Below, piece by piece: positions 10,206 through 51,908 of a stretch of DNA of 64,000 bases (within the stretch, counting starts at the first letter, position 1; the number at the start of each line of letters is the position of its first letter). A program made the position numbers and the translations under genes. The stretch lies in assembly GCF_009931435.1 (NCBI RefSeq), contig NZ_CP043414.1, one strand, 5' to 3'. The notes under the pieces are model-generated. The model made no database searches. It was not told where the DNA came from and saw only the letters and a program-made list of their open reading frames with translations. The stretch is from Escherichia coli (GTDB taxonomy: Bacteria > Pseudomonadota > Gammaproteobacteria > Enterobacterales > Enterobacteriaceae).

Positions 10206-10227
10206 TCGGTAAGATGCTTTGTGAGAA

Positions 10228-10423
<196 letters not shown>

Positions 10424-10425
<2 letters not shown>

Positions 10426-11332
10426 ACTTAGTAGAGATAAACGGAACTGTACTGCCGGGGATCATGGTATCGGGTAGCTTACCGTCCCAACGCTCAGCAG
10501 TGGTGAGGGCAACAAGTCCGGGATTATCCCGCAGAGCTTCACCGCGCAGGCGGATCGCTTCTGCTTCAGCCGCACTTTTTAAACGAATAGTTTCAGCCTC
10601 TGCCGCGCCTCTTACGCGAATAGTCTCAGCTTCTGCTTTGGCTGCCGCCAGTTTACTGTCTGCTTCTGCCTGGGCCTGAGTTACCGCTATTTGCGCCTGG
10701 ATTTTCTCTGTTTCCAGATTTTGCTTACGTGTGGCAATGGCGACTTCTGCTTTCATTCGATCTTCAATCGATTTTTCATAAGCGTCAGAAAAATCAATAT
10801 TTTCAATCTGGACACCATCAATCACCACCGGGCCAACAACGGCTTTACGCATTGCATTTTGCAGATCCTGAACCAGTTTTGTACGATCCTGTACCGCGCT
10901 GATGGCGGTATATTGGCCGAAAACGTTCTCCAGTTGGGTTGGCAGCTGGCGGACGATCAGACGCTCTTTTAAAGATTCAATGGTGTTGTAGGTTGTATAA
11001 ACTGCGCCAGCTTCTGAAGGCTTAATATGAAAACTAACCGACACGGTCATTTGTGCCGGTTGCTGGTCGCGGCTGTAGGCCTGTAATCCCTGATAAACCA
11101 CAGCCTGATTACGCGTGGAAATTTTCTCTACGCTTTCCATAAAAGGGATCTTAAAACCCAGACCCGGCTCGGCAACTTTTACGATTTTTCCGTAGCGCAG
11201 CAAAATGCCGCGTTCACCTTCATTAACGGTGTAATACGAGAGAAATGGCAGCACAACCACGGTAAGCACGCCAATGGCGATAGCAATAGATTTTTGTGGG
11301 CGAAATGAGGTTATTGAAACAGGCGCTTTCAT
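10424..11332 (-). CDS. SPFH/band-7 (prohibitin/stomatin-like) membrane protein
   Basis: 302 aa; N-terminal TM segment, SPFH-like core, C-terminal Ala/Glu-rich repeats (AEAETIRVRGAAEAETIRLKSAAEAEAIRLRGEA); not in the K-12 tktA-cmtB gap as I recall it. Confidence 0.8.
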
Positions 11333-22928: not shown

Positions 22929-24008
22929 ATGTCTAAGATTTTTGATTTCGTAAAACCTGGCGTAATCACTGGTGATGACGTACAGAAAGTTTTCCAGGTA
23001 GCAAAAGAAAACAACTTCGCACTGCCAGCAGTAAACTGCGTCGGTACTGACTCCATCAACGCCGTACTGGAAACCGCGGCTAAAGTTAAAGCGCCGGTTA
23101 TCGTTCAGTTCTCCAACGGTGGTGCTTCCTTTATCGCTGGTAAAGGCGTGAAATCTGACGTTCCGCAGGGTGCTGCTATCCTGGGTGCGATCTCTGGTGC
23201 GCATCACGTTCACCAGATGGCTGAACACTATGGTGTTCCGGTTATCCTGCACACCGACCACTGCGCGAAAAAACTGCTGCCGTGGATCGACGGTCTGCTG
23301 GACGCGGGTGAAAAACACTTCGCAGCTACCGGTAAGCCGCTGTTCTCTTCTCACATGATCGACCTGTCTGAAGAATCTCTGCAAGAGAACATCGAAATCT
23401 GCTCTAAATACCTGGAGCGTATGTCCAAAATCGGCATGACTCTGGAAATCGAACTGGGTTGCACCGGTGGTGAAGAAGACGGCGTGGACAACAGCCACAT
23501 GGACGCTTCTGCACTGTACACCCAGCCGGAAGACGTTGATTACGCATACACTGAGCTGAGCAAAATCAGCCCGCGCTTCACCATCGCAGCGTCCTTCGGT
23601 AACGTACACGGCGTATACAAGCCGGGTAACGTTGTTCTGACTCCGACCATCCTGCGTGACTCTCAGGAATATGTTTCCAAGAAACACAACCTGCCGCACA
23701 ACAGCCTGAACTTCGTATTCCACGGCGGTTCCGGTTCTACTGCTCAGGAAATCAAAGACTCCGTAAGCTACGGCGTAGTGAAAATGAACATCGATACCGA
23801 TACCCAATGGGCAACCTGGGAAGGTGTTCTGAACTATTACAAAGCGAACGAAGCTTATCTGCAGGGTCAGCTGGGTAACCCGAAAGGCGAAGATCAGCCG
23901 AACAAGAAATACTACGATCCGCGCGTATGGCTGCGTGCCGGTCAGACTTCGATGATCGCTCGTCTGGAAAAAGCATTCCAGGAACTGAACGCGATCGACG
24001 TTCTGTAA
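22929..24008 (+). CDS. fbaA: fructose-bisphosphate aldolase class II
   Basis: 359 aa starting MSKIFDFVKPGVITGDD. Confidence 0.97.
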   Translation: MSKIFDFVKPGVITGDDVQKVFQVAKENNFALPAVNCVGTDSINAVLETAAKVKAPVIVQFSNGGASFIAGKGVKSDVPQGAAILGAISGAHHVHQMAEHYGVPVILHTDHCAKKLLPWIDGLLDAGEKHFAATGKPLFSSHMIDLSEESLQENIEICSKYLERMSKIGMTLEIELGCTGGEEDGVDNSHMDASALYTQPEDVDYAYTELSKISPRFTIAASFGNVHGVYKPGNVVLTPTILRDSQEYVSKKHNLPHNSLNFVFHGGSGSTAQEIKDSVSYGVVKMNIDTDTQWATWEGVLNYYKANEAYLQGQLGNPKGEDQPNKKYYDPRVWLRAGQTSMIARLEKAFQELNAIDVL

Positions 24009-24034
24009 GATATTCCTTTCTGCTTACCTCAAGG

Positions 24035-24223
24035 CCCGCTCTGCGGGTCTTTTTTTCGCCAAAAGCAAAATTGCCTGATGCGCTACGCTTATCAGGCCTA
24101 CATGTATCCTGCAATATACTGAATTTACAGGCTTTTGTAGGCTGGATAAGGCGTTCACGCCGCATCCGGCATGACAAAGTGCACATTGATATCTGTCTGA
24201 GCCCCGCTCTGCGGATCTTTTTT
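24035..24223. repeat. BIME (two inverted REPs) between two copies of the fbaA terminator hairpin
   Basis: cccgctctgcgg hairpin plus T-run at 24035-24056 and again at 24203-24223; REP palindromes at about 24073-24103 and 24137-24173. Confidence 0.8.
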
Positions 24224-24365
24224 CACCATAAGCAAGGTGATGCAGATGAGAAATCTGTGATCTATTTGGCAAAATTATGCTTTATTGTTTACCCTTGTCA
24301 GACTGCCCGTCATAAGGCGGCGGAGTGTATTTCTCCATTTTGAGTCAGTTGAAAAGGAATATTGA

Positions 24366-25226
<861 letters not shown>

Positions 25227-48092: not shown

Positions 48093-48114
48093 TTTACTGA
48101 TTCGACTATCTTCT

Positions 48115-48316
48115 AAAGGCGCTTCGGCGCCTTTGACACTGATGTCAAACTCAACATTGCCTGATGCACCTCGTTTATCAGGCCTACATAGTCTGTGCAA
48201 TGTATTGAATTTGCACGATCTTGTAGGCTGGATAAGGCGTTCACGCCGCATCCGGCATAATAAAAGCACTTTGTCATCAATAATTTGAAAGGCGCTTCGG
48301 CGCCTTTATTTTTTTA
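48115..48316. repeat. BIME (two inverted REPs) between two copies of the gcvP terminator hairpin
   Basis: aaaggcgcttcggcgccttt at 48115-48134 and 48288-48307 (second followed by atttttttt); REPs at about 48159-48187 and 48223-48258. Confidence 0.8.
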
Positions 48317-48325
48317 GGAAAACAA

Positions 48326-49069
48326 ATGACTATAGCACTTGTGACCGGTGGCAGTCGCGGCATCGGGCGGGCAACTGCATTACTGTTGGCGCAAGAAGGG
48401 TATACGGTGGCGGTTAATTATCAGCAAAACCTCCACGCGGCGCAGGAAGTGGTGAAGTTAATCACGCAAGCCGGTGGCAAGGCATTCGTGCTTCAGGCGG
48501 ATATCAGCGACGAAAATCAGGTCATCGCAATGTTTACAGCAATCGATCAGCACGATGAACCGCTAGCCGCGCTGGTCAATAACGCCGGGATCTTGTTTAC
48601 CCAGTGCACCGTAGAAAACCTTACCGCAGAGCGAATCAACCGGGTACTTTCCACCAATGTGACGGGATATTTTCTCTGCTGCCGCGAGGCGGTAAAGCGC
48701 ATGGCGCTTAAGAACGGCGGTAATGGCGGTGCTATCGTCAATGTCTCGTCAGTGGCTTCACGGCTGGGATCGCCGGGAGAATACGTTGACTATGCGGCAT
48801 CGAAAGGGGCGATTGATACGTTAACCACAGGGCTGTCACTGGAAGTCGCCGCGCAGGGGATCCGCGTTAACGGCGTGCGGCCAGGGTTTATTTATACCGA
48901 AATGCACGCCAGCGGTGGCGAACCTGGACGCGTTGATCGCGTTAAGTCGAACATCCCCATGCAGCGTGGCGGACAGGCGGAAGAGGTCGCGCAGGCCATC
49001 GTCTGGCTGTTAAGTGATAAAGCCTCTTATGTCACGGGAAGTTTTATCGATTTGGCGGGTGGAAAATAA
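48326..49069 (+). CDS. ygfF: short-chain dehydrogenase/reductase
   Basis: 247 aa; TGGSRGIG cofactor motif. Confidence 0.9.
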   Translation: MTIALVTGGSRGIGRATALLLAQEGYTVAVNYQQNLHAAQEVVKLITQAGGKAFVLQADISDENQVIAMFTAIDQHDEPLAALVNNAGILFTQCTVENLTAERINRVLSTNVTGYFLCCREAVKRMALKNGGNGGAIVNVSSVASRLGSPGEYVDYAASKGAIDTLTTGLSLEVAAQGIRVNGVRPGFIYTEMHASGGEPGRVDRVKSNIPMQRGGQAEEVAQAIVWLLSDKASYVTGSFIDLAGGK

Positions 49070-51750: not shown

Positions 51751-51908
51751 TGTAGGCCTGATAAGACGCGTCAGCGTCGCATCAGGCATCGGATCGCAAC
51801 TGCCGGATGCGGCGTGAACGCCTTATCCGGCCTACGGGCCGCGTCCTTGGTGTGATAAAGGCACCAAATCCCAGGCATGATAAGACGCGTCAGCGTCGCA
51901 TCAGGCAA
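51751..51908. repeat. BIME: three REP elements between convergent yqfA and ygfZ
   Basis: gcctgataagacgcgtcagcgtcgcatcaggc occurs twice (direct) flanking an inverted gccggatgcggcgtgaacgccttatccggcctac. Confidence 0.8.

Follow-up and report, generated by a model that had tools for sequence, protein, structure and literature searches.

A duplicated fbaA terminator around a BIME-1 element in Escherichia coli, probably a target-site duplication made at insertion

The intrinsic terminator of fbaA is present twice in the Escherichia coli DNA analyzed here (one whole stretch of 64,000 nucleotides, hereafter the window), once on either side of a BIME-1 element, and this arrangement most probably (we would put it at about 80%) represents a target-site duplication that arose when BIME-1 integrated at the terminator in an ancestor of the genus Escherichia. 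An earlier sequence-only reading of the region had pointed to cccgctctgcgg(g/a)tc plus a T-run at 24035-24056 and again at 24203-24223, to two inverted REPs between these copies, and to about 35 bp of similarity shared by them. These observations proved accurate: the positions are exact, the REPs are of the Y type (plus strand) and the Z1 type (minus strand), and the similarity extends over ~35 nt (24033/24034-24068 versus 24201-24235), both copies comprising the same hairpin and T-run with a BIME-1 between them (Table 1). The comparative analysis that had been proposed also came out in favor of the idea, in that alleles without the BIME contain one terminator, which indicates that the duplication was made at BIME-1 insertion.

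REP and BIME sequences were described ~40 years ago and account for a noticeable share of enterobacterial intergenic DNA. BIME-1, also called the RIP or RIB element, consists of an A motif, a Y REP, an L linker with an IHF site, an inverted Z1 REP, and a B motif. As of 2021, the spread of REP/BIME sequences was not understood (PMC8266576).

Table 1. Positions of the features in and around the fbaA-mscS spacer, together with the duplicated hairpins at tktA and gcvP (coordinates are those of the window)
Feature	Coordinates	Strand	Basis
fbaA CDS (class II fructose-bisphosphate aldolase)	22929..24008	+	translation; fbaA annotation in matching E. coli records
Direct-repeat copy 1, the fbaA intrinsic terminator (duplicated part begins at ~24033)	24031..24068	+	terminator scan, fold, repeat detection
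Hairpin of copy 1, AAGGCCCGC-TCT-GCGGGTCTT	24031-24051		
T-run of copy 1	24050-24056		
12-nt native tail of copy 1, CGCCAAAAGCAA	24057-24068		
AATT, sole remnant of the BIME-1 outer A motif	24069..24072	+	alignment to A-motif consensus
Y-type REP (palindromic unit); minus strand reads GTAG-REP	24073..24101	+	0 mismatches to pattern
BIME-1 L linker, 35 nt, core TGCAATATACTGAATTTACA	24102..24136	+	core common to ~50 BIME-1 elsewhere (among the matches listed)
Z1-type REP, inverted relative to Y; plus strand reads GTAG-REP	24137..24170	-	1 mismatch to pattern
BIME-1 outer B motif TGACAAAGTGCACATTGATATCTGTCTGA, 30 nt; its end ..ATCTGTCTGA is the right end of the element	24171..24200	+	B-consensus alignment, E. 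whittamii comparison
Direct-repeat copy 2: GCCCCGCTCTGCGGATC, T6, CACCATAAGCAA	24201..24235	+	repeat detection, allele alignment, fold
mscS CDS, downstream neighbor	24366..25226	+	ORF list; annotation in matching records
tktA locus (10226..10421), hairpin AAGGGCCGCGAAAGCGGCCCTT twice	10226-10247 and 10400-10421	+	100% identical, 174 bp apart
gcvP locus (48115..48307), hairpin AAAGGCGCTTCGGCGCCTTT twice	48115-48134 and 48288-48307	+	100% identical, 173 bp apart

The element downstream of fbaA, the gene whose terminator served as the insertion target, is extragenic and single, lying between the fbaA stop codon and the mscS start without tandem repetition, and it comprises one Y REP and one Z1 REP in inverted orientation, as is characteristic of BIME-1. 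The Y REP matches its pattern perfectly where none would be expected by chance, and GTAG is present on both REPs (plus strand, GTAGGCTGG at 24134; minus strand, GTAGGCCTG, the reverse complement of 24093-24101). The long conserved sequence between the REPs contains the core of the BIME-1 L linker, the region in which the literature places the presumed IHF site of RIP/RIB elements. In general, BIME-1 is non-coding, nearly palindromic, and about 130-150 bp in size; 5'-T(G/C)AGAYTG begins both of its strands and was used to fix the element ends, and its consensus ends, TGAGACTGATGACAAA... and ...TTTGTCAGCAATCTGA, form terminal inverted repeats. At fbaA the B end alone is intact, the B motif as a whole having diverged and the A motif being reduced to AATT plus microhomology to the target. 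The Y REP/linker part also matches the Rfam family ES036 (CssrF sRNA; window 24094-24136, minus strand; 39.9 bits versus a gathering threshold of 37.6), and the Z1 REP gives a match to naRNA4 (window 24140-24175, plus strand) that is below threshold. Both appear to be models of REP/BIME sequence rather than of one specific gene, and we discarded them as a clue to the duplication, on which such REP/BIME-derived families are uninformative.

The two terminator copies form a direct repeat of 35-37 nt (24033-24068 versus 24201-24235) that is 86% identical with one 1-nt gap; the joined alignment has 32 matches in 37 columns, and the gap is located in the T-run. Repeat detection returned two blocks, 24032-24055 versus 24200-24223 (24 nt, 92%) and 24051-24068 versus 24218-24235 (18 nt, 89%), which are shifted by one base because the T-runs are T7 and T6, and the boundary of the duplicated segment was set by the end of the B motif (24200). 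Copy 1 has the GC-rich hairpin and immediate T-run of an intrinsic terminator, with a 9-bp stem of -14.1 kcal/mol and T7 according to the terminator scan and the fold. Copy 2 of this strain was not picked up by the terminator scan; its stem is weakened to GCGGATC (-8.8 kcal/mol, T6), and in typical E. coli it forms a clean 6-bp stem followed by T6 (-11.6 kcal/mol). Relative to copy 1, changes in both arms of copy 2 turn a G.T pair into C-G (GGCCCGC..GCGGGTC versus CCCCGC..GCGGGG; window 24201-24217), and such a compensated change suggests that the second hairpin has remained functional in E. coli.

The structure recurs in 3725 complete E. coli genomes, and an assembly artefact can therefore be ruled out. 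A short GC-rich hairpin followed by a T-run is a common motif, and two terminators might resemble each other by chance, a reading to which we give practically no credence here. Local alignment of one fbaA flank against the other scores 23.0, whereas a null distribution built from 297 non-cognate pairings, in which the left and right flanks came from different BIME-1 elements, has a mean of 7.6, a 99th percentile of 10.5, and a maximum of 12.5. In addition, the similarity extends 12 nt past the T-run, and there is an allele from which precisely one repeat unit is missing. Chance similarity was thus rejected by this flank permutation.

In a spread sample of 40 rows, 12 (~30%, consistent with ~1700 of 5425 E. 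coli genomes) have an empty fbaA allele, which is exactly 167-168 bp shorter and contains one terminator and no BIME, and all 12 of these non-filled rows show precisely joined flanks. In the alignment, the empty allele reads hairpin, T7, and CGCCAAAAGCAA directly joined to GGTGATG.., the same bases that follow copy 2 on its 3' side in the filled allele, and the whole stretch of copy 1 (hairpin, T-run, and tail) occurs in it once. Considering that tandem terminators do exist in bacteria, fbaA might have possessed two of them from an unrelated duplication before BIME-1 landed between them. We regard this as very improbable: no sampled allele has two copies without the BIME, both the BIME-less alleles and Klebsiella have one, and an identical coincidence would be required at tktA, gcvP, agp, metE, and eight or more other loci, each time with repeat boundaries that abut the element ends.

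With regard to the direction of change, both E. whittamii and E. albertii have BIME-1 at the same fbaA site with an identical left junction (..AAGCAA|AATTGCCTGATG). The E. whittamii B motif matches the consensus (..TTTGTCAACAATCTGA), and the hairpin of its copy 2 has decayed (GCCGCCAGGATAGAGGGGA), with TTTTTTCGCCAAAAGCAA (T-run plus 12-nt tail) still perfect. Klebsiella pneumoniae has a single terminator and no BIME, and the spacer that leads up to its conserved CTGTGATC..TTTGGCAAAA block near mscS is comparable in length; the outgroups were found through the FbaA cluster, as a search for MscS homologues gave only E. coli variants. Because E. albertii and E. whittamii share both the filled allele and its odd left junction, and because Klebsiella has a single terminator, the insertion of BIME-1 at fbaA is old and would predate the split of E. 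albertii and E. coli, unless the allele passed from one species to another. These shared filled alleles and their odd junction also led us to reject, as the main interpretation, an ancestral empty allele, introgression being a residual possibility. The most likely origin of the short E. coli alleles is a later, precise deletion between the repeats; these alleles occur on two upstream haplotypes, GTAAGATATT and GTAAGTCATT, for both of which the filled form is known. The 12-nt tail CGCCAAAAGCAA is native target sequence and not a footprint of the element. It resembles CAAACGCAA, and an origin as an excision footprint of the A motif was considered but is unlikely, given that the BIME-less Klebsiella has a spacer of similar length between the T-run and CTGTGATC.

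A palindrome located between short direct repeats stimulates their deletion by slipped misalignment, and deletion of the element is expected at fbaA because 35-bp direct repeats flank a long palindrome. The insertion is therefore reversible, and ~30% of E. coli genomes have lost one repeat together with the BIME. Slipped misalignment accounts for this loss but not for the origin of the repeats. Whole-BIME-1 excisions have been reported at other loci (Bachellier 1997, as cited in PMC1187871).

The sequence-only reading had also described the same pattern at tktA, where we found an identical architecture, and gcvP is organized likewise, that is, all three BIME-1 elements in the window (fbaA, tktA, and gcvP) are flanked by a duplicated hairpin. 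The tktA element is in the opposite orientation (REPs at 10278-10311 and 10347-10375), and the empty E. coli tktA allele has the hairpin once and then the T-run; the REPs of the gcvP element are located at 48159-48187 and 48223-48256. At both loci, the T-run has been lost from copy 1 and kept by copy 2.

Several further observations were made in these regions. For window 10207-10560, similarity to most E. coli genomes ends at the tktA stop codon (query position 147), and the segment 3' of tktA, including a gene for a prohibitin family protein, is a variable region present in only part of E. coli. The gcvP terminator was hit independently in different E. coli lineages (window 48093-48330; L005, 243-510; L006, 743-909): in the lineage of this window (8 genomes only), a BIME-1 is flanked by a hairpin duplication of 20 nt; in K-12 W3110, a B-motif-like remnant precedes a repeat of the boxC type; and in O157:H7, where bglA takes the place of ygfF as the neighbor, the T-run is immediately followed by a degenerate, oppositely oriented BIME-1. 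Another REP cluster (window 51754-51907) contains two copies of a 35-nt REP, AGGC[CA]TGATAAGACGCGTCAGCGTCGCATCAGGCA (97% identical, 119 bp apart), with a Z-type REP at 51802-51835 between them; this cluster lacks an L linker, and its flanks revealed no duplicated hairpin.

The pattern extends beyond the window. A scan with the linker core over one genome per species provided ~50 usable BIME-1 among the matches listed, which came from E. albertii, E. whittamii, two divergent E. coli, and two Pseudocitrobacter genomes, more than half of the 120 loci listed being chance matches in unrelated taxa. Flank similarity was above the null 99th percentile for 17-19 of the 50 BIME-1, and in an anchored test restricted to the 47 nt adjoining each end, 14 of 41 were above the 99th percentile and 12 above the null maximum (both counts among the matches listed). 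About 60% of the sampled BIME-1, many of them with a hairpin at one end only, have no significant duplication, which weighs against insertion at a hairpin foot; the one-ended hairpins could reflect decay or a second, duplication-free mode of insertion. Where duplications are present, the junction table shows that the flanking repeats abut the element termini within 1-2 bases and that most of them are complete palindromes, a typical junction being aaaa-HAIRPIN-|TGAGACTGATGACAAA...TTTGTCAGCAATCTGA|-HAIRPIN-tttt. At no fewer than 10 loci, an entire palindrome of 12-28 nt that is specific to the locus has been duplicated (such as GGCGGGGAACTCCCCGCC and AGCACCG..CGGTGCT), and at a few others the duplication is short (4-7 nt) and non-palindromic (TAGCA, ATAC, and GCTT).

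Matched empty sites with the hairpin present once were found at four loci (fbaA, tktA, agp, and metE). Between agp and yccJ, E. whittamii is filled and has the hairpin twice, and E. coli is empty and has AAAACTCCCCCGCGTGAAGCGGGGGAGT once; between metE and ysgA, E. albertii is filled with the hairpin twice, and E. coli DH1 is empty with AAACCGGGTGGTAATACCACCCGGT once. Sequences adjoining the two BIME-1 ends fold more strongly (means of -10.2 and -9.0 kcal/mol) than sequences 120-320 nt away (-5.5 kcal/mol; Mann-Whitney p = 1e-7 and 3e-5), and a strong hairpin was observed at one or both ends of 63% of loci (among the matches listed). Furthermore, 28 of 53 intact ends have C plus 0-3 further T before the element, i.e., C-T(1-4)-N-AGA. 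The ends of BIME-1 are constant, its insertion sites lie at the foot of a hairpin, mostly that of an intrinsic terminator, and the target is present in duplicate around it. The possibility that the hairpin is part of the mobile unit was rejected, as the hairpins differ at every locus and are single in empty sites.

Alternatively, a replication fork stalled by the terminator hairpin might have switched templates, copied the element, and then replicated the hairpin a second time on switching back. Hairpins and palindromes do stall replication and promote slippage, and one fbaA junction lies at a 9-nt microhomology. However, the unit termini TGAGACTG...CAATCTGA are constant to the base at dozens of unrelated loci without microhomology to the target, which implies end recognition rather than copy choice, and we consider template switching quite improbable.

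Clean, near-identical hairpin duplications were far more common in Pseudocitrobacter than in the two E. coli-labeled genomes of the scan, SCPM-O-B-8794 and E69, which hints at more recent BIME-1 activity in Pseudocitrobacter. The scan also returned perfect enterobacterial BIME-1 on very short contigs labeled Desulfosporosinus, Methylobacterium, Alkalicoccobacillus, and Collinsella; their presence in assemblies of these four unrelated taxa is most likely due to enterobacterial contamination.

Compared with the usual duplication of the hairpin only, the fbaA duplication is atypical, since it also includes the T-run and 12 further bases and thus reaches 17 nt beyond the hairpin, and since the A motif is truncated, both of which count against a simple insertion at the hairpin foot. 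The outer ~19 nt of the A motif are absent, the alignment beginning at position 10 of the A consensus (AGACTGATGACAAACGCAAAATT), and the target bases 24060-24068 (CAAAAGCAA) are similar to the inner A motif CAAACGCAA, which gives the 9-nt microhomology at the left junction. Two histories could have produced this junction, in which the end was either joined at the microhomology or converted later, and the data are compatible with either of them. If converted, the insertion would have duplicated the hairpin only, and the T-run and CGCCAAAAGCAA would later have been transferred onto the upstream copy from the downstream copy by a tract that ended at the A-motif microhomology, overwrote the outer A motif, and restored a complete terminator after fbaA. 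Junctions elsewhere typically read hairpin|TGAGACTGATG.. with an intact A motif, it is exactly the outer portion of this motif that is replaced by target-like sequence at fbaA, and the E. coli copies seem to have evolved in a concerted or compensated manner, all of which would fit a conversion. On the other hand, the same junction already exists in E. albertii and E. whittamii, no intermediate was seen, and one-step insertion joined at the microhomology yields an identical product; conversion is therefore possible but, in our judgment, rather unlikely.

The two kinds of duplication may have different consequences for transcription. At tktA and gcvP, copy 1 has no T-run and copy 2 has one, and termination is therefore expected at copy 2; transcripts of these genes should run through the BIME, which would place the element inside the 3' UTR. 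This is the usual outcome of a hairpin-only duplication, after which the element is preceded by a hairpin that lacks a T-run and followed by the real terminator. The fbaA copies have both kept their T-run, and the element is thus located between two predicted terminators: the gene keeps a full terminator upstream of the element and has a second one downstream, and, judging from its predicted stability, copy 1 should end most transcripts before the BIME.

The best reading of these results is that BIME-1 acts in the manner of a MITE, integrating at the base of terminator hairpins and duplicating each hairpin in full. For fbaA, we propose that BIME-1 integrated at the intrinsic terminator in the Escherichia ancestor, that one target strand would have been linked to the element on one side of the terminator hairpin and the second strand on the other side, and that repair synthesis would then have copied the intervening target (hairpin, T-run, and 12 nt) to both sides, generating the duplication of ~35 bp. 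We infer that the target palindrome may have been extruded, as a hairpin or a cruciform, when it was cut, and that the stagger would then equal the hairpin, as cuts made a few bases apart across the base of such a structure would be a whole hairpin apart in the linear sequence. Palindrome extrusion would thereby give duplications of either 4-7 nt or a complete palindrome of 12-28 nt. As for the enzyme, the REP-associated HUH transposase TnpA_REP and a MITE-type, DDE-like transposase are equally open candidates. C^T is the sole sequence requirement reported for cleavage by TnpA_REP, which cuts single strands at a variable distance from the REP (PMC3333891). The C^T signal at the junctions is weak evidence for this enzyme because terminator stems end in C before the T-run. 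IS200/IS605-type HUH transposition, the usual model for REP/BIME, makes no target duplication (PMC2817692), and the duplications of ~35 nt at fbaA and of 12-28-nt hairpins elsewhere do not conform to it; they argue against an IS200/IS605-style mechanism but not against the involvement of TnpA_REP.

More tentatively, BIME-1, and by extension REP doublets and Yersinia YPAL, may integrate into double-stranded DNA at the base of an extruded hairpin or cruciform, with duplication of the palindrome. If this were true, REP/BIME dissemination would be a structure-targeted, two-strand integration rather than the single-strand "peel and paste" of IS200/IS605, and intrinsic terminators would be specific landing pads, hence the location of the elements at the 3' ends of genes. 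The duplication of a complete, locus-specific terminator hairpin would be a footprint of the integration step itself (landing at the hairpin foot, with strands joined a hairpin apart), and the same footprint would explain the easy reversal of BIME-1 insertions. A general rule of hairpin duplication, if unpublished, bears directly on the open question of how REP/BIME sequences spread. The mechanism of this spread is treated as unknown in PMC3333891, PMC8266576, PMC2817692, PMC3116915, and PMC3733652, and none of these five mentions duplicated target hairpins at REP/BIME. The flanking repeats may already have been described, since the "excisions of a whole BIME-1" of Bachellier (1997) point that way.

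Among known systems, BIME-1 (RIP/RIB) itself agrees with the fbaA element in its REP types, their orientation, the linker core, its occurrence as an extragenic single copy at a gene's 3' end, and polymorphism among strains, and differs in that the A motif is truncated at fbaA. Presence/absence polymorphism of BIME-1 among strains was reported by Bachellier et al. (1997), as summarized in PMC1187871. The closest precedent that we found for the duplication is YPAL (RU-2) of Yersinia, which is described by De Gregorio et al. (2006), as summarized by Delihas (2008, PMC2229807), as a ~168-bp, not AT-rich, highly structured element in intergenic regions downstream of genes, with target-site duplications of 3-26 bp and targets that span or adjoin dyad symmetry. 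Its variable duplications and dyad-symmetry targets match those of BIME-1 (4-7 nt, 12-28 nt, and ~35 nt at fbaA), which are likewise close to the 3' ends of genes; this likeness is drawn from the description of YPAL rather than from its sequence, and YPAL is classified as a MITE separate from REP/BIME. In the REPIN-RAYT system, REP doublets are mobilized by TnpA_REP, an IS200/IS605-like Y1 HUH transposase. BIME-1 is also a REP doublet with a GTAG-tagged REP on each strand and C^T steps at many junctions, but IS200/IS605 elements move as single strands without duplication, whereas the whole-hairpin duplications of BIME-1 imply that both strands were joined in a staggered manner. REP dimers "inserted within small palindromes" have been reported in Thermomicrobium roseum, Halothiobacillus neapolitanus, and Anabaena variabilis (Di Nocera et al. 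2013, PMC3733652). These are likewise REP doublets with palindromic targets; however, there the palindrome is of a repeated consensus and is split with one arm on each side, whereas at BIME-1 a locus-specific hairpin is complete on both sides. With MITEs, BIME-1 shares terminal inverted repeats and a target-site duplication with single-copy empty sites, and differs from most DDE MITEs in the variable length of its duplication. The element, its position, and its presence/absence polymorphism are known already; the present comparisons document the duplication, its co-occurrence with the element, the single-copy empty sites, and the generality of the pattern. The fbaA case is thus a known type of element that joins a known class of behavior.
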